Assembly: GCA_022703375.1 (NCBI GenBank)
Contig: JAKLDS010000001.1
Span: forward strand, 13,540-77,539
DNA: 64,000 nt
Origin: Deltaproteobacteria bacterium
Lineage (GTDB): Bacteria > Desulfobacterota > Syntrophia > Syntrophales > Smithellaceae
Direction: 5' to 3'
Below, piece after piece: positions 25,073-64,000 of this stretch; positions within the stretch are counted from its first letter, which is position 1; the number at the start of each line of letters is the position of its first letter. The translations under genes were made by a program, and so were the position numbers. Below the pieces are notes generated by a model that was not told the origin of the DNA, searched no databases, and saw only the letters and a list, made by a program, of their open reading frames with translations.

Positions 25073-25074
25073 TA

Positions 25075-25139: not shown

Positions 25140-25215
25140 GGGCCCATAGCTCAATTGGTAGAGCCACCGGCTCATAACCGGTAGGTCCCTGGTTCGATCC
25201 CAGGTGGGCCCACCA
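25140..25215 (+). tRNA. tRNA with anticodon CAT (elongator tRNA-Met; tRNA-Ile2/lysidine not excluded)
   Basis: Cloverleaf: acceptor GGGCCCA/TGGGCCC, anticodon stem ACCGG/CCGGT with loop CTCATAA, T-arm CCTGG-TTCGATC-CCAGG, encoded CCA. The G1-C72 pair argues against an initiator tRNA. Confidence 0.9.
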
Positions 25216-43565: not shown

Positions 43566-45401
43566 TTACATTTCCACCCGCATGACAATTCCCTGCAAAC
43601 GGGTGGCCGGTAACTTGCTGAATTGAACGAAATTGGGGGTTATTCGTTTAATCAAACTGAATATGCGCCAGAGCAGTTTATTTGTTACAATGTCTTCCAC
43701 GCCATAAAATATGACTTTTTCCTGAATTCCGTGTTCTCTTATCAAATTCTCAATCTCCAGGATTTCGCGGTAGCCGGCCAGGATTTCAAAAGATTCAAGA
43801 CCGGGAGCAATATCCTTTGTCGTTTTAACCTCAACGCCAAATGGCTCTTCCGTGCGGTTAATGGAAATCAGAATATTGCGTTCGTAAATAATATTGCTGC
43901 GGAAGATGCTGTGAACAATATAGGGAGAAATCATTTCGTGCCCCCGGCAGAAATACAGGGCTGTGCCGGCGATATTCCTGCCTTTGGCATAAATCTGCTC
44001 GTAACTGATGAGAAAGGTTTCCAGATCCAGCGACCTCAGAGAACGGTAAAGCTGTTTTTGGCCTTTTGTCCAGATGATAATCAATGTCAAAGGCACGGCG
44101 GCGAGGATAAGAGACCAATAGGCGCCATGGGGTATTTTGCTGAGTGTTGATACGAAAAAGATAAAAGCGATACAAGTGACGATGACAGCGATAAACTGTT
44201 TCCATTTCAGTTTTTTAATCTGGGAAAACACTAAAATCATCATCAAACCGGTAATGGTCATCGAGCCTGTTACCGCCATGCCGTACGCGGCGGCGAGGTA
44301 TTCCGATTTTTTGAATATCAATATCATTAAAATAACTGCGCAGAACAAAAACCAGTTAACAACCGGAATATGAATCTGTGATTTAATACGGCTCGATGTG
44401 TATTCGACTTTCATCAGAGGCAGCAGCCTTGTCGTGAGCCCCTGGTAAACAACAGAGAAAGTTCCGCTGATTATCGCCTGCGAAGCAATGACGGTTGCCA
44501 TAACAGTGAGCAGGAGAAAAGGAATGTAAAGATAAGGCGCCTGATGCTGGACCATGCCGAAGAGCAGATACTTTATATCCGGATGCTGAATGGCAAAAAT
44601 ACCCTGTCCCATGTAATTGAGGAGGAGGGCGGCGAAAACAAAATACCAGGCGTTCAGAATTGGTTTCTTGCCCAGGTGTCCCATATCGGCATACAGAGCC
44701 TCCCCCCCGGTGGCGCAAAGAATAACCTCGGAAAGAACAAAAAATCCCGCGAGTCCGTTTTCCGTCAGGAATTGGAAAGCATAATAGGGATTAACGGCTT
44801 TCAGTATGTGCGGCATGGTGACGACAGACGCCAATCCCGTTGCGGCAAGACAGATAAACCAGATCAGCATCACCGGGCCGAAGATTCGGGCGACTTTATC
44901 CGTTCCCCGGGATTGAAAGGCAAAAAGCCCGATGGCAATTACTACGGCAATCAGAATCAGAATTTCCAGCCCCAGGTTTTCCAGGCCGGGAACAAGCAGA
45001 ATTCCTTCCACCGCGGACATGATTGTAATAGCGGGAGTTATTACTCCATCGCCCAGCAGCAGAGATACGCCGATAAAGGCCAGAAAGCCGGCGAAAGCCA
45101 GTTTGCGGCCTGGCTTGAGCATCCTGGTCAGAATTTCCCGCAGCATTATTTCTCCGCCCTGTCCTTTATAGGAAAGGCTCATGGCGAGCCAGGCATATTC
45201 GACTGTAACCAGAATGAGCATTGTCCAGACAACAAGAGAAAGGATGCCGAGAACGCTTTGCTCCGTTCGCGGGGTAAGGGCAAAGACAACGGTCAGGGTG
45301 TAGATGGGGCTGGTGCCGATGTCGCCGAACACAATGCCCATCGAGCGAATGACACCACTCCAGAAAGAATCGGGATTGCTATTATTCACAAATATCCTCA
45401 C
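43566..45401 (-). CDS. kup: KUP family potassium uptake protein
   Basis: 611 aa with the GDIGTSPIY signature, 12-TM architecture and a cytoplasmic C-terminal domain. GTG start. Confidence 0.9.
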   Translation of the reverse strand: MRIFVNNSNPDSFWSGVIRSMGIVFGDIGTSPIYTLTVVFALTPRTEQSVLGILSLVVWTMLILVTVEYAWLAMSLSYKGQGGEIMLREILTRMLKPGRKLAFAGFLAFIGVSLLLGDGVITPAITIMSAVEGILLVPGLENLGLEILILIAVVIAIGLFAFQSRGTDKVARIFGPVMLIWFICLAATGLASVVTMPHILKAVNPYYAFQFLTENGLAGFFVLSEVILCATGGEALYADMGHLGKKPILNAWYFVFAALLLNYMGQGIFAIQHPDIKYLLFGMVQHQAPYLYIPFLLLTVMATVIASQAIISGTFSVVYQGLTTRLLPLMKVEYTSSRIKSQIHIPVVNWFLFCAVILMILIFKKSEYLAAAYGMAVTGSMTITGLMMILVFSQIKKLKWKQFIAVIVTCIAFIFFVSTLSKIPHGAYWSLILAAVPLTLIIIWTKGQKQLYRSLRSLDLETFLISYEQIYAKGRNIAGTALYFCRGHEMISPYIVHSIFRSNIIYERNILISINRTEEPFGVEVKTTKDIAPGLESFEILAGYREILEIENLIREHGIQEKVIFYGVEDIVTNKLLWRIFSLIKRITPNFVQFSKLPATRLQGIVMRVEM

Positions 45402-49889: not shown

Positions 49890-50561
49890 ATGGCAAAACA
49901 AATAATTATCATCAGCGGGGGCAGGTTAGGAGAGGCCGCTTTTTATCAAAAGCGTCTGGCCGGGATGCTGAATTTTCTTGTTGTCTGCTGCGACGGCGGC
50001 GTTCGCCATTTGGATAAGCTCAACATTAAACCGGACGTGATTATCGGCGATATGGATTCTGTCAGCCGCGTTGAACTGGAAAAAAGAGAGGAGGCGGGAG
50101 CCCAGATAAAGCGCTATCCGCGGGAGAAGGACGCCAGCGACACGCAGCTGGCTCTGGCTTACGCTCTATCTTTAAAGCCCGACGCCATGGAAATCTGGGG
50201 GGCGCTGGGCGGGAGAATTGATCATGCTCTGGCGAATGTATTTTTGCTGGATTGGGCGGATAAAAAGGGTGCGACGGCTAAATTAATTGATGAATACTGC
50301 GAAGTATTTCTGGTGAAAAAAGAAGCCGTTTTCCATAATGCGGAGGGGCAGACTGTTTCGATTTTTGCTCTCGATGAAAAAGCCGCAGGAGTATCGCTCA
50401 GCGGTTTTCAGTATCATCTTGATAATGAAACTCTGGCGGCTGACAGTTCTCATGGCATCAGTAACTTTATTATTGACTCTCCCGCGACGATAACAGTTCA
50501 GGCAGGCAAACTGCTCGTAATTCATTACTGGCAGCAGGATATTTTTCCGGAGGCGGATTAA
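49890..50561 (+). CDS. thiN: Thiamine pyrophosphokinase
   Basis: 223 aa with motifs GDMDS, KDASDTQLAL and GGRIDHALAN. Confidence 0.85.
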   Translation: MAKQIIIISGGRLGEAAFYQKRLAGMLNFLVVCCDGGVRHLDKLNIKPDVIIGDMDSVSRVELEKREEAGAQIKRYPREKDASDTQLALAYALSLKPDAMEIWGALGGRIDHALANVFLLDWADKKGATAKLIDEYCEVFLVKKEAVFHNAEGQTVSIFALDEKAAGVSLSGFQYHLDNETLAADSSHGISNFIIDSPATITVQAGKLLVIHYWQQDIFPEAD

Positions 50562-50728
50562 TGAGACTCGAATTACGCAAGTATAGCGAAGCGGAATTCG
50601 TAAGTCGTAATGAGTCCCAGATTTCAGAAACGTAGTGCGCTGAAATCTGCAGGACGAATTATCCAATTCCGATGTATCGGAATTGGGAATTATCCCCGAG
50701 GCGAAGCCGAGTGGGATTAATTTTGGGT
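50559..50728 (+). repeat. Modular intergenic hairpin repeat (TAATGAGAC family), copy D
   Basis: TAATGAGAC at the thiN stop codon, then the hairpin cgaattacgc...gcggaattcg. A second unit taatgagtc carries cagatttcag/ctgaaatctg. The AATTATCC terminal module is nearly identical to copy A (ccaattccgatgtatcggaattgggaattatccccgaggcgaagcc). Confidence 0.85.
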
Positions 50729-50751
50729 GTATATTATGAGTTCAGATTATT

Positions 50752-51558
50752 ATGACGCTTGTTAAAGTTTTATGCATCGGCGGTTCGGATACCAGCGGCG
50801 GCGCGGGGATTCAGGCGGATTTAAAAGCAGTTAACGCCTGCGGCGCCTGGGGAATGAGCGTGATTACGGCGGTAACGGCGCAAAACACCAAAGGAGTGCA
50901 GGGTGTCTTTGCCGTTTCCGCCGAATTTGTCGGGAAACAAATAGATGCTATCATGAGCGACATTGGCGCAGATGCGGTCAAAACAGGCATGCTGCTCAAT
51001 GCCGATATTGTGGCGATGGTTGCCGATAAGATTAAGCAGTACGGCATGGAAAAATTGATTGTTGACCCAGTGATAGTGGCCAAAGGCGGCAGATATTTAT
51101 TGCAGACCAAAGCAAGGCAAACGCTGGTGAAAAAGTTATTACCGCTGGCTTTGCTTGTGACGCCCAATATCCCGGAAGCCGAAATCCTGGCCGTAATGGA
51201 GATAAAAACAATCGCTGCGATGAAGAAGGCGGCGAAAGTAATTCAGGACTGCGGCGCAAAAAATGTTTTAATTAAAGGCGGCCATCTGCCGCTCAAAAAA
51301 GAGGCAATTGATATTCTCTATGACGGCCGGGAATTTTATGAATTTTATGCGCCAAGAATAAATACGCCGCATACCCACGGTACCGGTTGCACCTATGCTT
51401 CGGCAATAGCAGCACGCCTCGCCCGCGGGGAAGAAATCGCGGAAGCAGTATTTGCGGCCAAAGAACTGGTCACAGCAGCAATTAAAAATTCCGTCCAACT
51501 GGGAACAGGGCATGGCTCGGTTAATATATTAGGGGATTTAATAAAAAGTAAGAGGTAA
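50752..51558 (+). CDS. thiD: Hydroxymethylpyrimidine/phosphomethylpyrimidine kinase
   Basis: N-terminal IGGSDTSGGAGIQADLKA and C-terminal HGTGCTYASAIAA. Confidence 0.95.
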   Translation: MTLVKVLCIGGSDTSGGAGIQADLKAVNACGAWGMSVITAVTAQNTKGVQGVFAVSAEFVGKQIDAIMSDIGADAVKTGMLLNADIVAMVADKIKQYGMEKLIVDPVIVAKGGRYLLQTKARQTLVKKLLPLALLVTPNIPEAEILAVMEIKTIAAMKKAAKVIQDCGAKNVLIKGGHLPLKKEAIDILYDGREFYEFYAPRINTPHTHGTGCTYASAIAARLARGEEIAEAVFAAKELVTAAIKNSVQLGTGHGSVNILGDLIKSKR

Positions 51559-51562
51559 AGAA

Positions 51563-52834
51563 ATGACACAACTAGAACAAGCCCGTAAGGGGAAAATATC
51601 AGAGGAAATGAAAATATGCGCTGCGGTGGAAAATGTTTCGCCGGAATTTATACGCGACGGTATAGCTGCCGGGACGATCGTTATTTGCCGCAATGTGAAT
51701 CACAGAAAGATTAAACCGCTGGCCATCGGCGCGGGGCTCAAAACAAAAGTAAATGCGAATATCGGGACATCAAAAGATCATATGGATATTGAGATGGAAT
51801 TAGCCAAGCTGAAGATTGCCGAAGAAGCCGGAGCGGATGCGGTGATGGATCTTTCCACGGGCGGCAATCTGGCGGCAATTCGTAAAGCCATTATGGAAAA
51901 GGCAACAGCGGCCATTGGCACCGTGCCGATTTATCAGGCGGCCTGCAAAGTTCTGCAGGAAAAGAAGGCGATATCCGAAATGACGGCGGATGATATATTC
52001 AACGTCATTGAAGAAAACGGTAAAGACGGTGTTGATTTCATTACCGTGCATTGTGGTGTGACGCGTGCGAGCGTGGCGGCGCTGGAAGAGCAGGGAAGAA
52101 TCCTGGGGATTGTCAGCCGCGGCGGTTCCATGACCGCCAACTGGATGGCCTGCAACAATTCGGAAAATCCGCTCTATGAACAGTATGACCGGCTTTTGGA
52201 AATTGCCCGGCGCTATGACATGGTTCTGAGTCTCGGCGACGGATTGCGCCCCGGCGCTATAGCGGATGCCACGGACAGAGGGCAATTGCAGGAATTAATC
52301 ATACTGGGAGAATTGGCAAAAAGGGCGCGGGCTGTCGGCGTTCAGGTAATGATTGAAGGCCCCGGCCATGTTCCCATTAAAGATATTGAAGCTAATATCA
52401 AATTGCAAAAAAAGATTTGTGAAGGCGCGCCGTTTTATGTGCTGGGGCCGTTGCCCACGGATATCGCGCCGGGCTATGACCATATTACATCAGCCATCGG
52501 CGGAGCGATTGCCGGGGCTGCCGGAGCCGATTTCCTCTGTTATGTCACTCCAGCGGAGCATTTGCGCCTGCCTTCCCTTAACGATGTTCGCGAAGGTGTG
52601 ATTGCGGCGCGGATTGCCGCGCATATTGCCGACATCGCCAAGGGAATCAGTGGTGCGATGAAGAGAGATATTAAAATGTCCCAATGCCGGAAAAAATTTG
52701 ACTGGCAAGGTCAGGTGAATGTGGCAATTGATCCGGAAAAAGCCAAAGAATTGCTGGAGAAAAGTAAAAGCGCGCATGACGAAGGGTGTACGATGTGCGG
52801 GGAATTCTGCGCGATAAAATTAGGTAAAAGGTGA
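51563..52834 (+). CDS. thiC: Phosphomethylpyrimidine synthase (short, anaerobe-type ThiC)
   Basis: 423 aa with motifs DLSTGG, TVHCGV and GPGHVP, and the C-terminal cluster CTMCGEFCA. Confidence 0.95.
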   Translation: MTQLEQARKGKISEEMKICAAVENVSPEFIRDGIAAGTIVICRNVNHRKIKPLAIGAGLKTKVNANIGTSKDHMDIEMELAKLKIAEEAGADAVMDLSTGGNLAAIRKAIMEKATAAIGTVPIYQAACKVLQEKKAISEMTADDIFNVIEENGKDGVDFITVHCGVTRASVAALEEQGRILGIVSRGGSMTANWMACNNSENPLYEQYDRLLEIARRYDMVLSLGDGLRPGAIADATDRGQLQELIILGELAKRARAVGVQVMIEGPGHVPIKDIEANIKLQKKICEGAPFYVLGPLPTDIAPGYDHITSAIGGAIAGAAGADFLCYVTPAEHLRLPSLNDVREGVIAARIAAHIADIAKGISGAMKRDIKMSQCRKKFDWQGQVNVAIDPEKAKELLEKSKSAHDEGCTMCGEFCAIKLGKR

Positions 52835-53046: not shown

Positions 53047-53355
53047 ATGATTGCTGTAATCGCGACGGTTAATTGCAAAGAAGGAAAAAGAGACGCTTAT
53101 CTGGCGGAATTGCGCAAAATTATTCCTCTGGTACGCAAAGAAGAAGGCAATATTGAATATGCGCCCTACAGTGATTTGCCATCGGGAATTCCGGTGCAGC
53201 CGCCGCTGCGGCCGGATGTGGCAGTATTAATCGAGAAATGGGAAAGCCTGGACGCGCTGAAGAAGCATTTGACAGCACCGCATATGGCTCCCTATCGTCA
53301 GGCGACAAAAGATATTGTGGTGTCCATGCAGGTGCAGGTTCTGAATCCGGCCTAA
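53047..53355 (+). CDS. ABM-domain (antibiotic biosynthesis monooxygenase / YgiN-like) protein
   Basis: 102 aa with a ferredoxin-like fold pattern (MIAVIATVNCKEGKRDAYL ... EKWESLDALKKHLTAPHM). Confidence 0.75.
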   Translation: MIAVIATVNCKEGKRDAYLAELRKIIPLVRKEEGNIEYAPYSDLPSGIPVQPPLRPDVAVLIEKWESLDALKKHLTAPHMAPYRQATKDIVVSMQVQVLNPA

Positions 53356-53436
53356 AATAAGCAGCGGAAGAAATTACGGAAAAGATGGCAGGTTCCGCTG
53401 CGGCGGGACTTGCAGCGATGAAATAATAATGAACCA

Positions 53437-54447
53437 ATGAAAAACGGAAAAATCAATCGGACAGCAACAATGCCGGTGCGGGCGGCAAGTTTTCTGGGGC
53501 CGGCGCTGCTGCCCAATCAGGATGCCCAGTGGTCGGAGGCCTTGCTGCCTTTAAATGTTGATAATCTTGTTTTGCAAATCATGGGGCAGCCGGTGCGCCG
53601 CGCCGGACGTTTTATCAAGGTGGTGTGCTGCGGAGCGCTGGCTTGCCTGCAGAGTGTGCCGCCGGAAGATTTGCAGGATAAGAAAATCGGGATATTTCCG
53701 GCCACCGGTCTTGGTAATGTTGATGAAATACTGCCTTTCATTACCCAGGTATTCAAACATGAAGGCGGCTTCCCCAGCCCCAATCAGTTTGCCAATTCCG
53801 TGAGCAATGCCGCCGCCTTTTTTCTGGCTAAGATATGCGGAGTCCAGGGAGTTGTCCTGACAATCTCTCAGGAGGAAATTTCTTTTGAGTCGGCGCTGTG
53901 GCTCGCGCAGAGTTATCTGGAACAAGGTGAAATAGAGCTGGCGCTGGTTGGCGGCTGTGATGTCTTTACTCCTTCCGTTGCCGATTATCGCGAGCGGATG
54001 AATTTGTCCGCCGCTGATTCACGGATGCTGCCGGCCGGTGAAGGCAGCTCGTGGCTTTTGCTGGGCGGCGATAAGGAAAAGAGTTTAGGAAATATTTTAG
54101 CCGTAGATTTCAGCAATGAACTGACAGCGCCCGATTGTTTTGCCGCCAATGAGCAGATATTGCGTGTTTGCGACAATTTCAGTTTACGGACGACGATTAA
54201 TTGCGGTTTGTCGCAGCAGAGTATCCGGCGCCGTCTTTTGCCCGGTTTCCGCCTGACTGGCGCATTGAGTCCTATCTGGGAACAACACGGCTGGTACAGG
54301 GAAGATTATCTTCCACACTGCGGCATTCATCCCACGGCGGCGGCTTTCGGGCTGGCACGCGCTCTGCTGTCGGTGGAGCCGGCGCTTTATCTGCATTATA
54401 ATTGCCACGCTGCGGGGAAACTGGCAGTTGTGGCGGCCGCAAAGTGA
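53437..54447 (+). CDS. Beta-ketoacyl synthase N-terminal-like protein lacking the catalytic Cys
   Basis: 336 aa resembling thiolase-fold KS/chain-length-factor proteins (NSVSNAAAFFLAKICGVQG ... LALVGGCD ... GEGSSWLLLG). Ser-Asn occupies the position where KS enzymes carry the active-site Cys. Confidence 0.5.
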   Translation: MKNGKINRTATMPVRAASFLGPALLPNQDAQWSEALLPLNVDNLVLQIMGQPVRRAGRFIKVVCCGALACLQSVPPEDLQDKKIGIFPATGLGNVDEILPFITQVFKHEGGFPSPNQFANSVSNAAAFFLAKICGVQGVVLTISQEEISFESALWLAQSYLEQGEIELALVGGCDVFTPSVADYRERMNLSAADSRMLPAGEGSSWLLLGGDKEKSLGNILAVDFSNELTAPDCFAANEQILRVCDNFSLRTTINCGLSQQSIRRRLLPGFRLTGALSPIWEQHGWYREDYLPHCGIHPTAAAFGLARALLSVEPALYLHYNCHAAGKLAVVAAAK

Positions 54448-54743: not shown

Positions 54744-56147
54744 ATGGATTGTATGGAATTAGATCCGTTGCTGGCTCAGGAGATTATCAAAAGTATAGAT
54801 GCCTTAGCGGTATGTGATACCGAGGGGCGTTACATCTATGTTAACCAGGGTTGGGTAGAATGGCTGGGGATACGTCCGGAAGATGTTATGGGCAAATACG
54901 TAAGAGATGTTGTGAAAGATACCAAAATCGATATTGTCCTGAGAACGAAACAGCCTGTGGTAGGCGAGATCCTTATGACAAGCAAGGATAATCCCCATGT
55001 CGAGGAAACAACAATTGTCAATTATTATCCGATATTCAGGGAAGGAAAGTTCGTTGCCGCTATCGGCTTCATCATTGTCAAAAGCACCAATCTGGCTTTA
55101 AGCTTAAGGAAGAGGCTGTCGCATCTTGACAAGGAAGTTAAATTATTAAAGGGCGAACTGCATAAATTACAGGGATCGCGCTACAATATCGATAACATCA
55201 TCGGCGATAGTCCGCCCATGAGAAGAATGAAAAAACAAATTTTTCAGGCCGCACGGTCCAACTCGACAGTTCTCGTTGATGGAGAAACCGGCACGGGGAA
55301 AGAGTTAGTTGCCCACGCCATTCATAATGCCAGCCAGCGTAACGCCTCCAGCTTTATCAAAATCAATTGTGCGGCAATTCCCGCCGACCTGCTCGAAGCC
55401 GAACTGTTTGGCTATGAAGGAGGAGCGTTTACCGGAGCCATCAGGTCAGGGAGGCAGGGCAAATTTGAAATGGCCGATAAGGGCAGCCTGTTCCTGGATG
55501 AAATTAACCAACTGCCCCTGGCTTTGCAGCCCAAGCTGCTCAGAGTGCTGCAGGAACGGGAAGTGGACAGGATCGGCGGCAGGGCGAGTCTGCAGGTCGA
55601 TGTTCGGGTTATTGTCGCCACTAACGTGGCTTTGGATAAGCTGGTTGAAGAACAAAAATTCCGTAGTGACTTGTTTTACCGGCTGAATGTCATGTCAATC
55701 ACTGTCCCGCCTCTCCGGGAGAGGAAAGAAGATTTGCCACTGCTCATTGTCGAGTTAACCAACAGACTCAACCGCCAGCTGGGAGTTGATGTGAAAGGTG
55801 TAACGCCGGAAGTGCTTAAATTGTTTGCAGAGTATGATTGGCCGGGAAACGTGCGTGAACTCCAGAACGTTTTGGAACGGGCAATGAATATTGCCTGGAG
55901 AGGCACTTTGGAATTGAAGCACTTTGATTGGTTTATCAAAAACCGGCTAATACCTGTTGCGGCAGTTGCCAATGAGTCAACTGCGAACAGTTCCCTCAAG
56001 GAAATTAAAAATGCAAGTGAAAAGGCAGCTCTCGATGAAGCCCTGAGGAGTTGCGGTAATAATAAGACACATGCCGCGAGGAAGCTGAAAATTTCCCGCA
56101 CGATGATCTACAAAAAAATGCGTCACTTCGGCATGTCATGTAAATAA
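54744..56147 (+). CDS. Sigma-54-dependent transcriptional activator (PAS - AAA+ - Fis-type HTH)
   Basis: Walker A GETGTGKE, the GAFTGA loop (EGGAFTGA), and C-terminal HTH HAARKLKISRTMIYKKM. Confidence 0.9.
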   Translation: MDCMELDPLLAQEIIKSIDALAVCDTEGRYIYVNQGWVEWLGIRPEDVMGKYVRDVVKDTKIDIVLRTKQPVVGEILMTSKDNPHVEETTIVNYYPIFREGKFVAAIGFIIVKSTNLALSLRKRLSHLDKEVKLLKGELHKLQGSRYNIDNIIGDSPPMRRMKKQIFQAARSNSTVLVDGETGTGKELVAHAIHNASQRNASSFIKINCAAIPADLLEAELFGYEGGAFTGAIRSGRQGKFEMADKGSLFLDEINQLPLALQPKLLRVLQEREVDRIGGRASLQVDVRVIVATNVALDKLVEEQKFRSDLFYRLNVMSITVPPLRERKEDLPLLIVELTNRLNRQLGVDVKGVTPEVLKLFAEYDWPGNVRELQNVLERAMNIAWRGTLELKHFDWFIKNRLIPVAAVANESTANSSLKEIKNASEKAALDEALRSCGNNKTHAARKLKISRTMIYKKMRHFGMSCK

Positions 56148-56183
56148 TTGTTTACAGTTAACAAAAGTTTACGCCAAGATTAC

Positions 56184-56231
56184 ATGAAAACAGGCGTAAT
56201 TTGTAAACTTTATTATACACAACAAATTTCC
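56184..56231. promoter_or_regulatory. Candidate upstream activator sequence (inverted GTTTAC/GTAAAC repeats)
   Basis: aaagtttacgcc ... ggcgtaatttgtaaacttt lies 85-130 bp upstream of the -24/-12 promoter. Confidence 0.4.
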
Positions 56232-56313
56232 CGCATCAATCAGATTAGAACCTTGATTTTGCAATATATTGAAATAATGACGTTATTTTACGATAAGCTT
56301 TAGTTGGCAATCC

Positions 56314-56328
56314 TGGCATATGATTTGC
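56314..56328 (+). promoter_or_regulatory. Sigma-54 (-24/-12) promoter
   Basis: TGGCAT-atgat-TTGCT has the exact consensus spacing of TGGCAC-N5-TTGCW. It lies about 100 nt upstream of the MBL hydrolase gene and directly downstream of the sigma-54 activator gene. Confidence 0.7.
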
Positions 56329-56430
56329 TCTTATTGGTAGACGTGTTTGTCTGGGGAAATGAAGAGTGTCAAATGGTAATTTGACATAACACAATTTAGG
56401 AACTATTTTTTGCATAGGGAGCTAGCAGAC

Positions 56431-57243
56431 ATGTCGCAATGGCTTATCCGACCGTTAGTTTTTGGTGCTATCGAAGTTAAAAAAGATCAATTAACTGCCG
56501 GTCTGGATATTGGATTGCCGTTGCAGGTTCCGTATCTGGGCTTTTACTTGACGGAAGGCAATCGTAAAGTTCTCTGCGATACGGGCATTAATGCCAAATA
56601 TATTATTGATGGGAAGGCCTGGGCGGGCAGCCCTGCCGAAGGCGGAGAAAAATGGGTACTGCAGGCGCTGGCCGCAGAGGGTTTAACCCCGGATGAAATA
56701 GATACCGTAATTTACTCCCATCTTCATAACGACCATGCCGGCAACTGCCATCTTTTTCCGCACGCCCGCCACGTTTTTCAGGATGCCGAGTGGAAAGAAT
56801 TGCTCGATCCGCTGCCGTCAATGATGATCAGAGGGGATTTTGACCAAAGCCTGATTCCCGAAATGAAAAGCCTCAACTGTCAAAGAATAGTCGGAGATGT
56901 CGAATTATTCGATGGTTTGTCTCTTATCCTGACACCCGGCCATACGGCGGGCAGCCAGTGCCTGCTTGTATCAACCCGGCAAGGTGTTTATATTATCGCC
57001 GGTGATACTGTTCATGTTTTACCCATTGCTTTTCCGGCCATGAAGGAAATGACTCTGATGGATGGCTCTCGTCTGAAAATTACCCCGGCGCCGAAACACT
57101 GGGGGGCGGCAGTGCCGTCCAGCCTGGTATATGATCATTATGCGTGGTACCGCTCAGTTTATCGTATTCAGTCATTACTGAGAAGCCCGGAGTATCTTAT
57201 CGCCGGGCATGAGCCTTCAATTGTCGGCAAGGTTTTTGGTTGA
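56431..57243 (+). CDS. MBL-fold metallo-hydrolase (lactonase-like)
   Basis: HxHxDH motif (SHLHNDHAGN) and downstream TPGHTAGS. ATG at 56431; the TTG at 56410 is an alternative start. Confidence 0.8.
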   Translation: MSQWLIRPLVFGAIEVKKDQLTAGLDIGLPLQVPYLGFYLTEGNRKVLCDTGINAKYIIDGKAWAGSPAEGGEKWVLQALAAEGLTPDEIDTVIYSHLHNDHAGNCHLFPHARHVFQDAEWKELLDPLPSMMIRGDFDQSLIPEMKSLNCQRIVGDVELFDGLSLILTPGHTAGSQCLLVSTRQGVYIIAGDTVHVLPIAFPAMKEMTLMDGSRLKITPAPKHWGAAVPSSLVYDHYAWYRSVYRIQSLLRSPEYLIAGHEPSIVGKVFG

Positions 57244-57289
57244 TGTCTGTTAGTAGTTGCTGAATCATTAAAAGAGGAGGCGCCTGCAG

Positions 57290-58069
57290 ATGGAAAAACG
57301 TTTTGTAGATCTTAGTATCGCCATAGAAGCTGATTTGCCTTGTGATCCTCCCATGATGATTCCCCGGATTGATTACGTCGATCATGTCCGCGGGGCTGCC
57401 CAGATGATGGATTTTTTTCCGGGTCTCAGCCGGGAGCAACTTCCCGGAGGACTGGGCTGGTCAATTGAAACACTGACGCTGACATCGCACAGTGGAACTC
57501 ACCTCGATGCCCCTTATCACTATCACCCCACCCAGGATAAAGGAAAGCCTGCCCTTACAATTGATGAGATTCCCCTCGAGTGGTGCATGAGCGACGGAGT
57601 TATTCTGGATTTTCGTCATAAGGACGATGGCGAACGGATTACCGCGGCAGACGTGGAAAAGGAATTGGATAAAATCGGCTATCAGCTCAAGCCCCTCGAC
57701 ATTGTCCTTGTTCAGACCGGAGCCGATGCCGCCTGGGGAACGCCGCAATACCTGGTCAAGGGGCCCGGCATGACCCGGGAGAGCACCCTGTATCTCACCG
57801 AAAGGGGCATCCGGGTTGTCGGTATTGACGCCTGGAGCTGGGACCGTCCGTTGCCGTTTCTGGCCAGAGAGTTCAGGGAAAAAGGCAATCCCGAAGTTAT
57901 CTGGGAAGCGCACTTTGCGGGAATTGATATCGGGTACTGTCACATGGAAAAAATGGCAAACCTGGCTGCCATCGGCAGATCCTATGGCTTTACGGTCTGC
58001 TGTTTTCCTGTAAAAATTAAAGGTGCATCCGCCGGCTGGTGCCGTCCGGTTGCTATCGTTAATCCATAA
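57290..58069 (+). CDS. Cyclase family protein (kynurenine formamidase-like amidohydrolase) 1
   Basis: HSGTHLDAPYHY metal-binding motif; 259 aa; RBS agaggagg. Confidence 0.8.
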   Translation: MEKRFVDLSIAIEADLPCDPPMMIPRIDYVDHVRGAAQMMDFFPGLSREQLPGGLGWSIETLTLTSHSGTHLDAPYHYHPTQDKGKPALTIDEIPLEWCMSDGVILDFRHKDDGERITAADVEKELDKIGYQLKPLDIVLVQTGADAAWGTPQYLVKGPGMTRESTLYLTERGIRVVGIDAWSWDRPLPFLAREFREKGNPEVIWEAHFAGIDIGYCHMEKMANLAAIGRSYGFTVCCFPVKIKGASAGWCRPVAIVNP

Positions 58070-58086
58070 ATCAAGGAGTAAATACA

Positions 58087-59010
58087 ATGTCAAGAAAAGC
58101 AATTTTTACTGCGGCCATTACGGGAGGAATTCATACACCCACGATGACCCCTTATCTGCCGATTACACCGAAGCAGATTGCTGATGAAACAGTCAGGGCC
58201 TGGGAGGCCGGAGCATCCGTTGCCCATATCCATGTGAGAAACCCCGAAACAGGTCAGCCGGCTTCATCACTGGAGCTTTACCGCGAAGTCATCACCGATA
58301 TAAAATCTCGTTGTGACATCGTTCTTTGCATAACGACAGGCGGTGGGCTTGGCATGTCCACAGAACAGCGTGTGGCGGTGCTTCCCGCGTTCGAACCCGA
58401 ACTGGGATCATTTAATTTCGGATCAATCAACGTAGCTTTGTTCCCTCTGCTGTCTAAATACAGCGATTTTAAATTTCCCTGGGAGCCGGCTTATCTTGCC
58501 ATGACGGAAGATTATATTTTCCCCAATACATTTAAGAGCCTCAGGGAGTTTTCGGCGGTTTTTGAAAAGTATGGAACGAAGCCGGAAATCGAAATCTATG
58601 ATGTGGCTATGATCAACAATCTGGCTTACATGATTGAAAAAGGACACATTAAGAAACCCGTCTATCTCCAGTTTGTCATGGGCCTGTTGGGTGGCATCCC
58701 CGCCACAATCGAGAATCTGATGTTTCTTTACAAAACCGCGAAAGAAACAATCGGAGATTTTGTCTGGTCGGTCTGTGCTGCGGGTAAAAATCAATTAAAT
58801 ATGGGCACGGCCGCTCTTTTGCTGGGCGGAAACGTTAGGGTAGGCATGGAAGACAGCCTTTATGCGGGCAAGGGAACTTTGGCCAAAAGCAATGCCGAAC
58901 AGGTGGAAAACATTGTGCGGATTGCACGTCTGCTGGGTGTTGAACCCACAACTCCTGACGAGACCAGAAAGATATTGGGACTCAAAGGGCTGGACAAAGT
59001 AAAATATTAA
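58087..59010 (+). CDS. BKACE family enzyme (3-keto-5-aminohexanoate cleavage enzyme-like, DUF849)
   Basis: N-terminus IFTAAITGGIHTPTMTPYLPITPKQIADETVRAWEAGASVAHIHVR is typical of the beta-keto acid cleavage enzyme family; 307 aa. Confidence 0.85.
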   Translation: MSRKAIFTAAITGGIHTPTMTPYLPITPKQIADETVRAWEAGASVAHIHVRNPETGQPASSLELYREVITDIKSRCDIVLCITTGGGLGMSTEQRVAVLPAFEPELGSFNFGSINVALFPLLSKYSDFKFPWEPAYLAMTEDYIFPNTFKSLREFSAVFEKYGTKPEIEIYDVAMINNLAYMIEKGHIKKPVYLQFVMGLLGGIPATIENLMFLYKTAKETIGDFVWSVCAAGKNQLNMGTAALLLGGNVRVGMEDSLYAGKGTLAKSNAEQVENIVRIARLLGVEPTTPDETRKILGLKGLDKVKY

Positions 59011-59032
59011 TTGCTACGGGAGAGTTAAGAAA

Positions 59033-59803
59033 ATGATCGGCAATATAGAAATAATTGATTTGAGTGTGCCTACGGAGGAGAGCCCGAGCGAGGCGCTTTC
59101 TCTCAAGGTAATCCATCAGTCACATAAGGAAACAGCCCCTGTTCTGGCAAAATTTTTCGGCTGCGAAGAGAAGGATCTCCGGGATGGCCTGGGCTATGCC
59201 AATGACAGTGTGGAAATGATATCCCATTCCGGCACCCATCTTGATGCCCCCTGGCATTATGCTCCCCGGAGCGAGGGAAAAAAAGCTAAAACTATTGATG
59301 AGATTCCCCTTACGTGGTGTTACAGCGACGGCGTGGTTCTGGATTTCCGGCAAAAGCAACGAGGAGCAGTCATTACCAGCGAGGATTTGCAAAAGGAACT
59401 GGAGCGCATTGGTTATAAGTTAAAACCGTTCGACATTGTTCTTATTATGACGGGCGCCGATAAATTTTGGGGAAAAGCTGAATACTTTGATGCGGGTTGC
59501 GGTATGGGCAGGGAATCAACGCTCTGGCTTGTGGAAAAAGGCATCCGGGTTATGGGGATTGATTCCTGGGGATGGGACAGGCCTTTCTGGGCAATCAAAA
59601 AGGCTTTTGCCGAGACGGGAGACCGGAAAATTCTGTGGGAGGCTCATCTGGCAGGCATTGAACGGGAATATTGCCATCTGGAAAAGCTGGCTAATCTGGA
59701 TAAGCTGCCCCGACCGTTCGGTTTTAAGATTGCCTGTTTCCCCGTGAAACTTACCGGAGGCAGCGCCGGCTGGTGCCGGGCAGTGGCCATAATGGATAAA
59801 TAA
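59033..59803 (+). CDS. Cyclase family protein (kynurenine formamidase-like amidohydrolase) 2
   Basis: HSGTHLDAPWHY motif. It is a clear paralogue of 57290-58069 and collinear over the whole length (e.g. TIDEIPL.WC.SDGV.LDF, GIRV.GID.W.WDRP, SAGWCR.VAI). Confidence 0.8.
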   Translation: MIGNIEIIDLSVPTEESPSEALSLKVIHQSHKETAPVLAKFFGCEEKDLRDGLGYANDSVEMISHSGTHLDAPWHYAPRSEGKKAKTIDEIPLTWCYSDGVVLDFRQKQRGAVITSEDLQKELERIGYKLKPFDIVLIMTGADKFWGKAEYFDAGCGMGRESTLWLVEKGIRVMGIDSWGWDRPFWAIKKAFAETGDRKILWEAHLAGIEREYCHLEKLANLDKLPRPFGFKIACFPVKLTGGSAGWCRAVAIMDK

Positions 59804-59817
59804 AATTTGAGGCGCAA

Positions 59818-60570
59818 ATGGATTCAACAGAAAATGTAATTTTAAGCGGCAAAAAAATAACCAAGCGTTTCGGCGGCCTGACGGCTTTGTCTGAGGTTGA
59901 TTTCGATGTCCGGCGCGGCGAGATCGTCGGGCTTATCGGACCAAACGGTTCGGGAAAGACGACGCTCTTTAATGTCATCTCCGGTATTTACGATCCCGAA
60001 AACGGTGATTTGTTTTTCGGGAACCGGAAAATAACATCCATGTCGCCTCATAAGCGGGCGTGTTTGGGTATCGGCCGCACTTTTCAGATTGTCCGGCCTC
60101 TCGCCGGCCTGAATCTTATCGAAAATGTCGCCACAGGAGTTCTTTACGGCCGCGAAAAAAAGACAGGCGCCCGGGAAGCAAGGGAAAGAGCATTGGAAAT
60201 TCTATCCTTTACCGGTTTGAGTGACCGGGCCAGCAAGCTTCCCGGTGAATTGATTCTGGAAGACCGCAAGCGCCTGGAAATTGCCCGCGCGCTTGCCCTC
60301 CATCCGGAGCTTTTGCTGCTCGACGAGGTCTTTGCCGGTCTGAACAAAACAGAAATCGGCGCTGCCATTGATCTGACTTTCCGGATCAGAGAGGAATACG
60401 GCACAACTATTTTTATGATTGAGCATGTGATGAAGGCAATAATGAGCACCTGCAGCCGCATCATAGTGCTTAATTTCGGGATAAAACTGACCGAAGGATC
60501 GCCGGATGAAGTTGCCAATCATCCTGAGGTAATTTCCGCTTATTTGGGGGGCGCCTATGCTAAGTGTTGA
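59818..60570 (+). CDS. ABC transporter ATP-binding protein (LivG-like)
   Basis: Walker A GPNGSGKTT and Walker B LLLDEV, with a branched-chain amino acid type C-terminus (EVISAYLG). Confidence 0.9.
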   Translation: MDSTENVILSGKKITKRFGGLTALSEVDFDVRRGEIVGLIGPNGSGKTTLFNVISGIYDPENGDLFFGNRKITSMSPHKRACLGIGRTFQIVRPLAGLNLIENVATGVLYGREKKTGAREARERALEILSFTGLSDRASKLPGELILEDRKRLEIARALALHPELLLLDEVFAGLNKTEIGAAIDLTFRIREEYGTTIFMIEHVMKAIMSTCSRIIVLNFGIKLTEGSPDEVANHPEVISAYLGGAYAKC

Positions 60571-61261
60571 AAACCTGACAGTCTGTTACGGCCAGATGAA
60601 GGCCCTGCGCAGTGTATCCATCGAAATTTCCGCAGGCCAGATGGTTGCCCTCATCGGAGCCAACGGTTCGGGTAAGACAACTCTTTTGAACGCCATCTCC
60701 GGGCTTGTTCCGATAGAAGAAGGCAGGATTATCTGGGAGGATCAGTCGCTGAATGGCTTTCCTCCCGACAAGTTATGCCGGAAGGGAATTATTCAGGTCC
60801 CGGAAGGTCGCAAGCTGTTTCCCAGCATGACGGTGGAAGAAAATCTGATTATGGGAGCTTATCATCCCAACGTCCGTAAAAAGGCGCAGGAATCTCTGCA
60901 GAAAGTCTTTTCATCCTTCCCGCGTCTGGCAGACCGTCGCCGCCAGTTTGCCGGCAGCCTCTCCGGCGGGGAACAGCAAATGGTGGCAATGGGACGGGCA
61001 CTGATGGCCAAACCCCGCCTTCTTATGCTCGACGAACCTTCTCTGGGGCTCTCTCCGAAGGCGGCGGCGGAGATTTTTGAAATAATCAGGGAACTAAACA
61101 AAGAGGGAATAACGATTCTGCTGGTATCCCAGGAGGTTATGCAAACCCTGGCAATTACTACTTACGGATATGTCTTGGAAAACGGAGTCCTGGTTTTGCA
61201 GGGCGATTGCAAGCAATTGCAGGAAGACCCGAAAGTCAAGACTTCCTATTTAGGAATGTAA
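60557..61261 (+). CDS. ABC transporter ATP-binding protein (LivF-like)
   Basis: Walker A GANGSGKTT, signature LSGGEQQM, Walker B LMLDEP, and C-terminal VKTSYLG. Confidence 0.9.
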   Translation: MLSVENLTVCYGQMKALRSVSIEISAGQMVALIGANGSGKTTLLNAISGLVPIEEGRIIWEDQSLNGFPPDKLCRKGIIQVPEGRKLFPSMTVEENLIMGAYHPNVRKKAQESLQKVFSSFPRLADRRRQFAGSLSGGEQQMVAMGRALMAKPRLLMLDEPSLGLSPKAAAEIFEIIRELNKEGITILLVSQEVMQTLAITTYGYVLENGVLVLQGDCKQLQEDPKVKTSYLGM

Positions 61262-61297
61262 ACCGAATCATGAAAGCTTGGGAAAGGAGATTTAGTG

Positions 61298-62506
61298 ATG
61301 AAAGTAAAAAGGGGTAATTTTTTTTCGTTGCTGGTGATTGCGGCAATCATTTGTAGCTTCACTCTGATGACTCCCGCGGTCGGGTTTAGCGCGGGGAAAC
61401 CAATTGTTATCGGCGGCTCTTTGCCCCTGACGGGAGCATACGCTGAAACAGGGCAATGGATTGAAAAAGGCATGCGCTTCTGGGCGGATGAAATCAATTC
61501 TAAAGGCGGGATGTTGGGCCGCACCGTAGAATTTAAAATCTATGATGACCAGTCCGATGTCGGGAAGGCCGTTACCTTTGCCGAAAAGGCCATTACCGTG
61601 GACAAAGTTGACCTGCTCTTTGGCGGTTATCCCGGCACCGCAGCCCGGGCTGTCATGCCCGTGGCGGAAAAACACAAATTTGTATATGTCTCCATGGGAG
61701 GCCATATGAAGAGCTTCGAGCAGGGCTATACCTACTCGTTCGGCGCTCCGCCCCTGATGGGTGAGTGGTGGTATGAAGGATTCTTCCATTGGCTGGCGAC
61801 TGTTCCGGCAGACAAGCGGCCCAAGAGGGCAGCCGTTTACACAATAAATAATCCGGTTGGCCTTTCGTTAATGGACTCTATTAACCGCTGGACGAAGAAA
61901 CTGAATATCGAAATCGTAATCAATGAGAAGTATAATGCTCCGCTCACCGATGCTACAGCCCTGATAGTTAAGGCCAAGCAGTCGAGATGCGACATCCTTT
62001 TTGCCAATGGCTTTTTCCCTGATGGAGTTACGACTATGAAGGCGGCCAAAGCCCTTGGATACAACCCTAAAGCCATTGTGCAGGGAATCGGTTCCGTTGT
62101 TCCCGCGTGGGTCAAGGAACTGGGAAAAGACGGTGACTATGTCTTTTCCGGAACCTGTTTGTCCGGACAGCTTAGCTACCCCGGCAATGACAAGCTCAAC
62201 GCCTATGTCAAGAAGACATACAATCTGAACGAGTATCCTCTTTACTTTGGCTTCGGTTATTCCTGGATGCAGACTCTGGAGCAGGCAGTGGCGGGGGCCA
62301 AAGTTCTGGACCAGACTAAGATTCGCGATTGGCTGAAGGCAAATAAAGTAAATACCATTGCCGGACCAATGACCTTTGATAAACGCGGTTTGCCGGAACC
62401 GATTAACTTCGGGACGCAGATTATCAATGGCAAGGTCGAATTGATTTCACCGAAAAACGTTCAGACGAAAGAGCCGGTCTATCCGAAACCGGCCTGGGAA
62501 AAATAG
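61298..62506 (+). CDS. ABC transporter substrate-binding protein (LivK/type I periplasmic binding fold)
   Basis: Signal peptide followed by PIVIGGSLPLTGAYAETGQ, typical of Leu/Ile/Val-binding family receptors. RBS aaggag. Confidence 0.85.
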   Translation: MKVKRGNFFSLLVIAAIICSFTLMTPAVGFSAGKPIVIGGSLPLTGAYAETGQWIEKGMRFWADEINSKGGMLGRTVEFKIYDDQSDVGKAVTFAEKAITVDKVDLLFGGYPGTAARAVMPVAEKHKFVYVSMGGHMKSFEQGYTYSFGAPPLMGEWWYEGFFHWLATVPADKRPKRAAVYTINNPVGLSLMDSINRWTKKLNIEIVINEKYNAPLTDATALIVKAKQSRCDILFANGFFPDGVTTMKAAKALGYNPKAIVQGIGSVVPAWVKELGKDGDYVFSGTCLSGQLSYPGNDKLNAYVKKTYNLNEYPLYFGFGYSWMQTLEQAVAGAKVLDQTKIRDWLKANKVNTIAGPMTFDKRGLPEPINFGTQIINGKVELISPKNVQTKEPVYPKPAWEK

Positions 62507-62507
62507 C

Positions 62508-63386
62508 ATGGACGCTGTTCTTATCTTTCAGTCTCTGATCAGCGGGATTATGATGGGCATGGTCTACGCCCTGCTGGGCGTAGGCTTTTCCCTGACGTGG
62601 GGAGTGATGCATGTGATTCACATTTCTCATGGCGCATTCGGGCTTTTGGGCGCATATGCAGCCTACAGCCTCCTGCAGTACTTCGGGGTGGATCCTATTG
62701 CTTCGGCGGCAATGTCCGTGCCGCTGCTGTTCCTTATGGCCTGCGGGCTGTATCAACTTCTCATCAGGCCCATCACCAGAGCAAAGAATATTATTATGGC
62801 GTCAATGATTCTAACCTTTGGTCTGGCCATCATTCTGGAAAATATCATGGCCCTCATCTGGAAAGCGGATCCACGGGTTCTGACCCCTGCCTATTCCAGC
62901 GGCGCCTTAATCGTGGGCCCTTTCTATTTTCAGTATCCTCACCTCGTCGGTTTCGGTCTGTCCCTTGTGGGGATTACGGCTCTTTATCTCTTTCTGAAAA
63001 AAACATACACGGGGATGGCTGTAAGGGCAGCCTGGCAACAGCCCGAAGCCGCCAGGCTTTATGGTGTCAACCTGTTTCAGATCAGCATGATCACCTTTGC
63101 CCTTGCCGTCTCCACGGCCGGGGCAGGGGGGATCTGTCTGGCTCTCCTTAACTCATTTGAGCCCCATTCGCATAATCTCTGGCTGATCTACCTCTTTCTT
63201 GTTGTCATTGTGGGCGGTGTAGGCAATGTCATCGGCACGGCTCTGGCGGGACTGATTATCGGCGTAATCACCGGACTCTCCATGGCCTTTCTACCCTTCC
63301 AGTGGGTAAACCTGGTGACCTTCGGCCTTCTCATGGTATTTCTCATTTTCCGACCCCACGGAATCTTTAAGCAGGAGGGGTTATGA
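62508..63386 (+). CDS. ABC transporter permease (LivH-like)
   Basis: 292-aa polytopic protein with the N-terminus LISGIMMGMVYALLGVGFSLTWGVM typical of LivH. Confidence 0.9.
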   Translation: MDAVLIFQSLISGIMMGMVYALLGVGFSLTWGVMHVIHISHGAFGLLGAYAAYSLLQYFGVDPIASAAMSVPLLFLMACGLYQLLIRPITRAKNIIMASMILTFGLAIILENIMALIWKADPRVLTPAYSSGALIVGPFYFQYPHLVGFGLSLVGITALYLFLKKTYTGMAVRAAWQQPEAARLYGVNLFQISMITFALAVSTAGAGGICLALLNSFEPHSHNLWLIYLFLVVIVGGVGNVIGTALAGLIIGVITGLSMAFLPFQWVNLVTFGLLMVFLIFRPHGIFKQEGL

Positions 63387-64000
63387 TGAATAAATACTAT
63401 CCCGCCGCACTGGCAATTCTCATCATCCTTTTAGCCGCATTCCCTGCCATCGGGCCGGAGGTCTATTATCTTTCTTTCATGTTCTCCGTTTTCATGTATG
63501 TCATCCTGGCCTCCTCGTGGAATTTCATCGGCGGCTACGCCGGTTACCTGTCTTTCGGCCATGCCGCTTTCTTCGGCATCGGGGCCTTTGCCACAGCGAA
63601 AATGGCGACAGTGTTTCAGTTGCCGCCTCTGCTGACAATGCTGGCCTCTATACCGGCCGGCGGCATAGCCGCATTGATTGCGCTGATTGTCGGCTACCCC
63701 TGTCTTAAAATTCGGGGACCATATTTTTCCGTCGTGACCCTCTGTTTTGCCTTTGTTGTAGATCTGGCGGTGAAAAACATCGAGTATCTGGGCGGCGCCG
63801 AAGGCCTCTGGATGAAGTTTATGGACCTTCCGGAAAAGACAGCCCGTACCATTATGTATGAAGCCATGCTTCTGCTCATGGTGATTACGCTGGCCGCATC
63901 CTGGTTTCTCGGACGTTCCCGCTTCGGCACCGGGCTCACGGCAATTCGTTCCGACGAAGAGGTGGCGGAAACCATGGCTGTCCCTACAGCTATGCTCAAG
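63383..64000 (+). CDS. ABC transporter permease (LivM-like), 3' end outside window
   Basis: ATG at 63383 overlaps the LivH stop (ATGA). The frame is open to the window end (206 codons): MMNKYYPAALAIL...SWNFIGGYAGYLSFGHAAFFGIGAF... This ORF is not in the ORF track because no stop codon falls inside the window. Confidence 0.85.
   Translation, partial: MMNKYYPAALAILIILLAAFPAIGPEVYYLSFMFSVFMYVILASSWNFIGGYAGYLSFGHAAFFGIGAFATAKMATVFQLPPLLTMLASIPAGGIAALIALIVGYPCLKIRGPYFSVVTLCFAFVVDLAVKNIEYLGGAEGLWMKFMDLPEKTARTIMYEAMLLLMVITLAASWFLGRSRFGTGLTAIRSDEEVAETMAVPTAMLK

Follow-up and report, generated by a model that had tools for sequence, protein, structure and literature searches.

Here, we examined a 64-kb stretch of DNA (64,000 nt, hereafter the window) from a deltaproteobacterium of the family Smithellaceae (order Syntrophales; contig JAKLDS010000001.1, positions 13,540 to 77,539), the right-hand end of which carries a probable catabolic operon of nine genes preceded by the gene for its putative activator. 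Genes were assigned by open reading frame (ORF) calling combined with Pfam and NCBIfam profile scans of the window, and all ten lie on the (+) strand. The block opens with a sigma-54 enhancer-binding activator (EBP; 54744..56147) that matched PAS_4, Sigma54_activat (230 bits), AAA_lid_14, and HTH_8, i.e., a PAS–AAA+–Fis-type helix-turn-helix (HTH) architecture with no receiver domain. GAFTGA, Walker A (GETGTGKE), and Walker B are visible in the translated EBP, a metagenome record calls an alternative start at 54753, and the best NCBIfam match was a PrdR-like model (408 bits, below the cutoff of 795). Next in order are a metallo-beta-lactamase (MBL)-fold hydrolase of the lactonase subgroup (56431..57243; Pfam Lactamase_B, with the HxHxDH motif present as HLHNDH), for which an upstream TTG at 56410 is a second possible start, the cyclase-family metal hydrolase CYC1 (57290..58069; PF04199, 134 bits; motif HSGTHLDAPYH), an enzyme of beta-keto acid cleavage (BKACE; 58087..59010; PF05853, 342 bits, with the whole profile covered), and a second cyclase-family metal hydrolase, CYC2 (59033..59803; PF04199, 132 bits; motif HSGTHLDAPWH).

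The remainder of the block, from 59818 to the end of the window, encodes a five-component ATP-binding cassette (ABC) importer of the HAAT type. Specifically, it comprises a LivG-like ATPase (59818..60570; ABC_tran and BCA_ABC_TP_C; LivG, 199 bits), a LivF-like ATPase (60557..61261; ABC_tran; LivF, 246 bits, and UrtE, 205 bits) whose gene overlaps the preceding one by 14 nt, a HAAT-family periplasmic binding protein with a signal peptide (61298..62506; Peripla_BP_6, 175 bits), a LivH/UrtB-like permease (62508..63386; BPD_transp_2; UrtB, 145 bits, and LivH, 68 bits), and a LivM-like permease (63386..64000). All of these LivG, LivF, UrtE, UrtB, and LivH scores, and indeed every Liv equivalog score of the importer in NCBIfam, fell below cutoff. 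The last gene is cut by the window end; it was recognized by tblastn synteny and by the gene calls of L175, a contig of the same organism (L numbers denote loci or contigs in our comparison), where it encodes 311 aa. Distances between genes of the operon range from −14 to +46 nt, terminator-like hairpins occur within it at chance frequency, and the genes are probably co-transcribed. ORF calls, profile scans, and motif searches recovered the ten genes, their catalytic motifs, and the promoter and inverted repeats described below where a first-pass annotation of this DNA had read them, and the Pfam and NCBIfam scans supported its enzyme family assignments.

A sigma-54 −24/−12 promoter, TGGCAT-N5-TTGC (GG-N10-GC), is predicted by motif search and conservation at 56314..56328 on the (+) strand, with the first start codon following ~100 nt downstream. 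It is the sole exact match to TGGCAY-N5-TTGC in the 64 kb; since the same pattern with one mismatch is not enriched in the window (10 found vs 12.9 expected), the support for this promoter comes from its position and conservation. Upstream of it lies a 9-nt perfect inverted repeat, AAAGTTTAC-N30-GTAAACTTT (56164..56211, no strand assigned), which is the probable activator binding site (UAS). One −24/−12 element and one upstream GTTTAC-N30-GTAAAC repeat, 145–147 nt apart, were present in all five EBP-type loci (the window/L001, L007, L008, L014, and L092). The promoter reads TGGCAC-N5-TTGC in the other four, which also keep the UAS arms and the 30-nt spacing while the sequence of the spacer diverges (L014). 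Neither element was found in any of the 11 other loci checked (0/11), in which the regulator is TrmB or TetR or the contig includes no EBP intergenic region. With GG-N10-GC upstream of the first gene, an AAA+ protein bearing both GAFTGA and an HTH, and a predicted UAS that in 5/5 loci falls within the required distance of about 100–200 nt from the promoter, there is good comparative evidence that the EBP would act from the UAS on a sigma-54 promoter, in keeping with the sigma-54-activated operon that the first-pass annotation had proposed. The stretch from the sigma-54 promoter to the first start codon contains a further perfect 8-nt inverted repeat, TGTCAAAT-N4-ATTTGACA (56367–56386), which L007/L008 share and which overlaps a sigma-70-like −35/−10 match (56381–56409); a second regulator might use it as an operator, or it might form a hairpin in the 5′ untranslated region.

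Both cyclases have an intact HxGTHxDxPxH metal motif and intact downstream His/Glu residues. CYC2 is a paralog of CYC1 (51% identical) and, among the loci examined, was confined to Syntrophales-type clusters, where it follows the BKACE immediately in every case. An AlphaFold model of CYC1 built on an alignment from three subfamilies (pLDDT 86.3; a shallow-alignment model with pLDDT 62.6 was discarded) had the isatin hydrolases as its closest fold (TM-score 0.75, 19–23% identity), followed by a cyclase-type phosphotriesterase and then the kynurenine formamidases. In this fold, a metal-activated water would attack a carbonyl, and the fold does not tell which bond breaks. The likeness to isatin hydrolase and kynurenine formamidase extends to the same metal motif; these enzymes hydrolyze amides of aromatic amines, however, and genes of a tryptophan or indole pathway are absent here.

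The best NCBIfam match of the BKACE was NF053538, the triacetate-cleaving BKACE (394.5 bits, cutoff 430), and the protein is 52% identical to PDB 3LOT. Its H47 and H49 (His-x-His) are invariant in 14 relatives, and on the basis of the published Kce structure, we take them to be Zn ligands. The nearest characterized BKACE is BKACE15 of Paracoccus denitrificans (PDB 8RIO/8RIP/9HNF), which is likewise of the long BKACE type and has a G-x-I-H-T-P segment in common with the window enzyme but is only 43% identical to it (8RIO). BKACE15, an enzyme with no assigned physiological role, cleaves 3,5-dioxohexanoate, 5-hydroxy-3-oxohexanoate, 3-oxohexanoate, and 3-oxopentanoate, all uncharged C5–C6 beta-keto acids (PMC11961710, citing Bastard et al. 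2014). The nearest families and structures of the MBL protein are AiiA (78 bits, cutoff 375), AttM (65 bits, cutoff 390), and 4-pyridoxolactonase, with which it has the HxHxDH motif in common; all of these matches lie far below cutoff (62–78 bits vs cutoffs of 325–390), and public annotation names it an N-acyl homoserine lactonase family protein. Aligned to LivJ/LivK (1USG/2LIV), the binding protein has the replacements E226→Q, T102→H, Y202→F, and S79→G, which, in an alignment of low identity, is moderate evidence that it lacks the residues holding an alpha-amino acid and would not serve a LIV importer. Searches of solved binding proteins and of the protein of a second lactonase-like family described below for ligand clues gave remote matches only.

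Genome-neighborhood analysis revealed that the CYC1/BKACE/lactonase module recurs in both anaerobes and aerobes. A word-limited search returned ~8,000 CYC1 relatives, the best 120 clusters of which are at least 75% identical, and among the matches listed, relatives occur in more than 500 metagenome loci. Among unannotated hydrolases of anoxic metagenomes, this subfamily, to which public annotation gives the name kynurenine formamidase, ranks with the most abundant and the best conserved. CYC1 orthologs are 76–86% identical across Syntrophales, Desulfomonilaceae, and other lineages, binding protein orthologs are 74–82% identical between clusters, and MBL orthologs are 75–80% identical in L013, L087, and L088. 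By comparison, the BKACEs associated with CYC1 fall into four or more lineages with mutual identities of ~50%, and CYC1 orthologs occur with six importer classes (ABC, TRAP, MFS, EamA, SSF, and AtoE-type). Two flanking cyclases are found only in the BKACE subclade of at least 80% identity; BKACE relatives of 62–73% identity mostly adjoin 3-hydroxyacyl-CoA-dehydrogenase (3HCDH)-like genes, which is the classic module in which a 3-hydroxy acid is oxidized and then cleaved.

The arrangement of the window, EBP/MBL-CYC1-BKACE-CYC2-ABC, is repeated in L007, L008, L014, and L092. Other variants are TrmB/BKACE2-CYC1-BKACE-CYC2-ABC, in which an SMP-30/gluconolactonase-family (SGL) gene can lie divergently upstream (L096, L101, and L109); CYC1-BKACE-CYC2-ABC-MBL-BKACE (L013); TetR/CYC1-ABC-MBL-BKACE (L087 and L088); TetR/CYC1-TRAP-SGL-BKACE (L089, L090, and L163); TrmB/cyclase-SSF-BKACE-MBL (Desulfovirgula, L028); AtoE-type transporter-BKACE-CYC1-ADP-forming acyl-CoA synthetase (L058); and CYC1 with an MFS or EamA transporter only. 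Among 25 metagenome loci in which 7 kb or more of sequence lies downstream of CYC1, an importer was present in 18, a BKACE in 14, two cyclases in 8, and SGL in 4. MBL and SGL belong to unrelated families yet hold equivalent positions across clusters, with SGL replacing MBL, which argues that the step they catalyze is lactone hydrolysis; the nearest relatives of the former are lactonases, and the latter is named for gluconolactonases. Since several variants have no lactonase at all, we argue that it is accessory, acting, for example, on the substrate or an intermediate in its lactone form. In one locus (L015, 10952–14448; a metagenome-assembled genome [MAG] labeled Syntrophus aciditrophicus), the CYC2, LivG, and binding protein genes appeared split or truncated in tblastn, reflecting either an assembly error or decay of the cluster.

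CYC1-type cyclases of 49–58% identity are also encoded on plasmids and chromids of aerobes, including cultured bacteria. Chelatococcus sp. CO-6 has TetR-TRAP-cyclase-BKACE-SGL, with an SGL 71% identical to that of the anaerobe, P. denitrificans has TetR/cyclase-MFS-BKACE, and BKACE-cyclase pairs occur in Sphingopyxis and Agrobacterium as well. BKACE15 was considered as the BKACE of the P. denitrificans cyclase module, which proved false: the module enzyme is a paralog (56% identical). In Agrobacterium tumefaciens (plasmid pAt1D1609a; L178), BKACE-thioesterase-cyclase adjoins a three-subunit molybdenum hydroxylase of the xanthine dehydrogenase type and a TRAP system, with a hydroxyquinol dioxygenase/maleylacetate reductase set beside it; this locus may link the cyclase subfamily to hydroxylated aromatic or heteroaromatic acids.

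In 7 of the 16 annotated contexts, the place of the BKACE is taken by a protein of the fumarylacetoacetate-hydrolase (FAH) family, encoded next to the cyclase or in the same small cluster. A simple TetR/TRAP-cyclase-FAH unit is found in Thalassospira, Pseudosulfitobacter, and Clostridium estertheticum (whose cyclase is only 35% identical to CYC1), and in Burkholderia, Roseinatronobacter, Diaphorobacter, and Pseudomonas, cyclase-FAH is part of a larger set that also includes a flavin hydroxylase, a VOC dioxygenase, a Rieske protein, and an S9 hydrolase. Five of the seven FAH partners were scanned, and the best family was a 2,4-diketo-acid C–C hydrolase in four, with no match in the fifth; these matches are weak (43–116 bits vs a cutoff of 500). 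Overall, 11 of the 16 contexts have an adjacent catabolic partner, which is always a BKACE or an FAH-family protein, and the remaining five cyclases are orphans. Both partner families include enzymes that cleave beta-dicarbonyl acids, and FAH proper (EC 3.7.1.2) accepts 3,5- and 2,4-dioxo acids. Because it suits both BKACE and FAH, a 3,5-dioxo acid is the fitting class of compound. The larger aerobic set forms a recurrent, apparently undescribed cluster on plasmids of Roseinatronobacter, Diaphorobacter, Pseudomonas, and Burkholderia (L186, L189, L191, and L181, respectively), made up of an S9 serine hydrolase, a VOC dioxygenase, a small Rieske protein, a flavin aromatic hydroxylase, an MFS transporter, a CYC1-type cyclase, FAH, and sometimes a cupin; we take it to resemble the biochemically known orcinol/resorcinol route through trioxo acids.

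The explanation that we favor, with a probability of roughly 0.55, is an inducible catabolic operon for the import of a compound, the hydrolytic opening of its (poly)beta-carbonyl ring or chain, and cleavage by the BKACE; we infer every catalytic step, the order of the steps, and the substrate. The PAS-domain EBP would sense the substrate or a product, bind GTTTAC-N30-GTAAAC, and open the sigma-54 promoter, and the ABC importer, predicted to be of high affinity, would take up a small, probably acidic, non-amino-acid compound. The two cyclases might then open a 1,3-dicarbonyl ring or chain by hydrolysis of a C–C or C–heteroatom bond, as DPGC (see below) and isatin hydrolase do, with the MBL protein opening a lactone form of the substrate or an intermediate, so that conversion to a beta-keto acid in the cytoplasm would need no redox step. 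Finally, the BKACE would use acetyl-CoA to convert the beta-keto acid to acetoacetate and an acyl-CoA, activating the carbon without ATP; because no other enzyme recurs, this acyl-CoA should be a central metabolite. As a specific version of this scheme, we tentatively suggest a C6 triketide, with triacetic acid lactone (a 4-hydroxy-2-pyrone) or phloroglucinol passing through 3,5-dioxohexanoate to acetoacetate and acetoacetyl-CoA, although this assignment may well prove wrong. It is quite unlikely, but worth stating, that CYC1 represents a very widespread new subfamily of cyclase-fold C–C hydrolases that need no preceding reduction and open a ring, be it of phloroglucinol or of a triketide isomer, directly to 3,5-dioxohexanoate.

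The closest known relative of the operon is anaerobic phloroglucinol degradation, in which a cyclase and a BKACE are a known pair (PMC10470551). The Clostridium scatologenes cluster encodes PGR, DPGC, HOHD/TfD, and TAL, and DPGC, a cyclase-family enzyme with Trp20/Tyr22 in its substrate pocket, hydrolyzes a cyclic 1,3-dione between the steps of an SDR reductase and a 3HCDH-type dehydrogenase, in one pathway with a BKACE (PMC10470551). Neither this pair nor the ability of the cyclase family to hydrolyze C–C bonds of 1,3-diones, of which DPGC is the example, had been considered in the first-pass annotation. The operon might simply belong to this pathway, with the redox genes encoded elsewhere, given that it has the signature pair and that the best NCBIfam match of its BKACE is the triacetate-cleaving enzyme. 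However, no SDR or 3HCDH-type gene is present in the window or in any orthologous cluster; tblastn with Syntrophorhabdales cluster proteins, including the SDR, found no phloroglucinol-type reductase, dehydrogenase, or DPGC relative anywhere in the window, and no reductase or dehydrogenase recurs in the orthologous clusters. A genuine phloroglucinol-type cluster, BKACE-cyclase-cupin-SDR-3HCDH, is found in Syntrophorhabdales (L171/L172, 7026–11884), where two cupin genes are added to the canonical set. Its cyclase is 28% identical to CYC1 (26–31% for CYC1/CYC2 vs DPGC-type cyclases) and carries PLWPY (W20/Y22, named as specific to DPGC in PMC10470551), as do those of L035 and L174, whereas the corresponding columns are D/P in CYC1 and E/L in CYC2, and it lacks an insertion of ~20 residues present in CYC1/CYC2. 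Three of four features of the pathway (SDR reductase, DPGC residues, and dehydrogenase) are therefore absent, and on the fourth, the triacetate lyase, the window BKACE and that of the genuine cluster score 394.5 and 394.1 bits, respectively, on NF053538. This model was rejected as a discriminator of triacetate specificity, as all BKACEs of the clade that were tested, including that of the genuine cluster, gave 394–427 bits, under the cutoff of 430; true triacetate lyases from bacteria other than clostridia probably escape it. No relative has the Trp16 of the clostridial lyase, a signature that is hence uninformative, and a homolog search with a DPGC-type cyclase returned no informative names. 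Membership in the phloroglucinol pathway is accordingly very improbable, and the view that this gene combination does not match a described pathway was upheld, as the searchable literature yielded no account of clusters that combine cyclase + BKACE + lactonase or cyclase + FAH.

The first-pass annotation had instead inferred from the amino-acid-type importer a nitrogenous substrate that is taken up, subjected to ring or amide opening, and cleaved as a beta-keto acid; a heterocycle opened at an amide or lactam bond, for example a pyridone, a pyrimidine-like compound, or a lactam, would be of this kind. The closest solved folds of CYC1 are indeed amide hydrolases (isatin hydrolase and kynurenine formamidase), permease and ATPase scores come closest to HAAT urea/amide and branched-chain amino acid transporter models, and the Agrobacterium cyclase-BKACE-TRAP cluster includes a xanthine-dehydrogenase-type hydroxylase, a class typical of N-heterocycle catabolism. 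The importer, however, gives little guidance, as the binding protein appears to lack the alpha-ammonium site and importers of six families are interchangeable in orthologous clusters. In addition, no deaminase, aminotransferase, urease, or other nitrogen-handling gene recurs in ~70 related loci, and the lactonase, BKACE, and FAH partners all indicate the oxygen and carbon chemistry of dicarbonyls, which together make such a substrate unlikely. A different amide would be that of an N-(3-oxoacyl)homoserine lactone (AHL) or its ring-opened form; the lactonase would open the lactone ring before the cyclase, as an amidase, frees a 3-oxo fatty acid and the BKACE turns this acid into acetoacetate and a shortened acyl-CoA. 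AHL and gamma-butyrolactone lactonases are the best family matches of the MBL protein, in agreement with its public annotation, chelation of the metal by a beta-keto amide would parallel that by isatin, 3-oxohexanoate is a substrate of BKACE15, and carboxylate-type importers would suit ring-opened acyl-homoserines; an accessory lactonase, absent in several variants, also fits. Against this, the AiiA match reaches only 78 bits of the required 375, a trace signal is an unlikely substrate for a cyclase subfamily so abundant in sediment, peat, and digester metagenomes, replacement of BKACE by FAH does not fit a mono-keto fatty acid product, and no homoserine-handling gene recurs, so that we strongly doubt AHL catabolism. 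Lastly, the genes could be neighbors with no shared pathway, such as generic detoxifying hydrolases beside an amino acid importer, and some CYC1 homologs are in fact orphans or lie beside mobile elements. It would surprise us greatly if this were so: gene order and tight spacing are kept across Syntrophales, Desulfomonilaceae, Bacillota, and Alphaproteobacteria, the binding protein, MBL, and CYC1 are each 74–86% identical between clusters, and a single conserved promoter precedes the block. Ascorbate/diketogulonate, deoxy-sugar lactones, uracil/barbiturate, tetronic/tetramic acids, and 4-hydroxycoumarin/4-hydroxyquinolone were also considered as substrates and dropped, with no supporting evidence.

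Several points weigh against hydrolytic opening of a dicarbonyl followed by BKACE cleavage. The roles assigned to the CYC1-subfamily cyclases, the lactonase, and the BKACEs are predictions, the cyclase fold does not separate amide from C–C hydrolysis, and we know of no precedent for the direct hydrolysis of aromatic phloroglucinol. The Trp reported to be specific to the clostridial triacetate lyase is absent from all BKACEs described here, as it is from the phloroglucinol-type BKACE of Syntrophorhabdales. The FAH family spans diverse functions, and its members in the larger aerobic clusters may have another intermediate as their substrate. Moreover, certain CYC1 orthologs are accompanied by an importer alone or stand without any partner, indicating that coupling to a BKACE is frequent and not obligatory, and the scheme leaves the presence of two cyclases, and of two BKACEs in relatives, unexplained; the two cyclases could form a heteromer or serve two related substrates.

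Compared with known systems, the operon resembles the C. scatologenes cluster in combining a cyclase-family Mn-type hydrolase with a BKACE, in ending (as proposed here) in acetoacetate and an acyl-CoA, and in belonging to strict anaerobes of polyphenol-rich habitats. It differs in having no reductase or dehydrogenase, a cyclase of another subfamily, two cyclase paralogs, a lactonase, a binding-protein-dependent importer, and sigma-54 control. The oxidative deoxyribose/deoxyribonate pathway likewise unites a lactonase and a BKACE in one route to acetoacetate and an acyl-CoA but needs two dehydrogenases to make the 3-keto acid and has no cyclase (PMC6365646), whereas here no dehydrogenase is present and the cyclases are the core. 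The operon is best described as a variant of the known cyclase + BKACE logic with a different cyclase subfamily, no redox step, an added lactonase, and interchangeable importers and regulators.

The surroundings of the operon are those of an ordinary chromosome, as confirmed by dnaG, rpoD, and then tRNA-Met at 21521–25215; an AcrB-type efflux pump (32884–36039) and a Kup potassium transporter (43566–45401) lie between this region and the operon. Three thiamine genes, for thiamine pyrophosphokinase, a ThiD-like kinase, and ThiC, stand in a row at 49890–52834; an Rfam scan of the whole window at the gathering threshold detected no thiamine pyrophosphate riboswitch and returned two tRNAs only. 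Directly upstream of the activator (53047–54447) are genes for an ABM-family protein (102 aa) and then a 336-aa ORF with a weak partial match to an N-terminal ketosynthase domain (24.6 bits), neither of which is conserved beside the cluster in relatives, and we therefore treat both as unrelated to the operon. On L175 (2077–2391), ~420 nt past the window end and starting ~100 nt after the last permease, there is a fragmentary, weakly FMN-dependent-dehydrogenase-like ORF (E = 1.8e-4) that is not conserved in relatives, which have MlaE there instead. The operon forms a self-contained unit: in the Syntrophales relatives, the cluster stops after LivM and is followed by unrelated genes, such as MlaE and a GAF-cyclase gene. 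The MBL sequence of the window is identical to that of a deposited Smithellaceae MAG protein, and the closest genome contigs belong to Syntrophaceae/Syntrophales MAGs from anaerobic digesters.

The genomic logic of this operon suggests a short path, needing neither a redox step nor ATP, that leads from a small compound of cyclic or poly-carbonyl type to acetoacetate and an acyl-CoA, and it would extend the known chemistry of both the cyclase fold and the BKACEs. If CYC1 were to open the triketide ring directly, then its combination with a BKACE or FAH, plus a lactonase acting on the pyrone isomer, would constitute a second, purely hydrolytic and cofactor-free, route to the mineralization of carbon from polyphenols or polyketides, present in syntrophs, sulfate reducers, Chloroflexota, and aerobic Proteobacteria. 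As the module also occurs in cultivable bacteria (Chelatococcus sp. CO-6, P. denitrificans, and Thalassospira marina), the substrate question is directly testable, and knowing the substrate would allow models of carbon turnover in digesters, peat, and sediments to be extended by a pathway and much existing annotation to be corrected.

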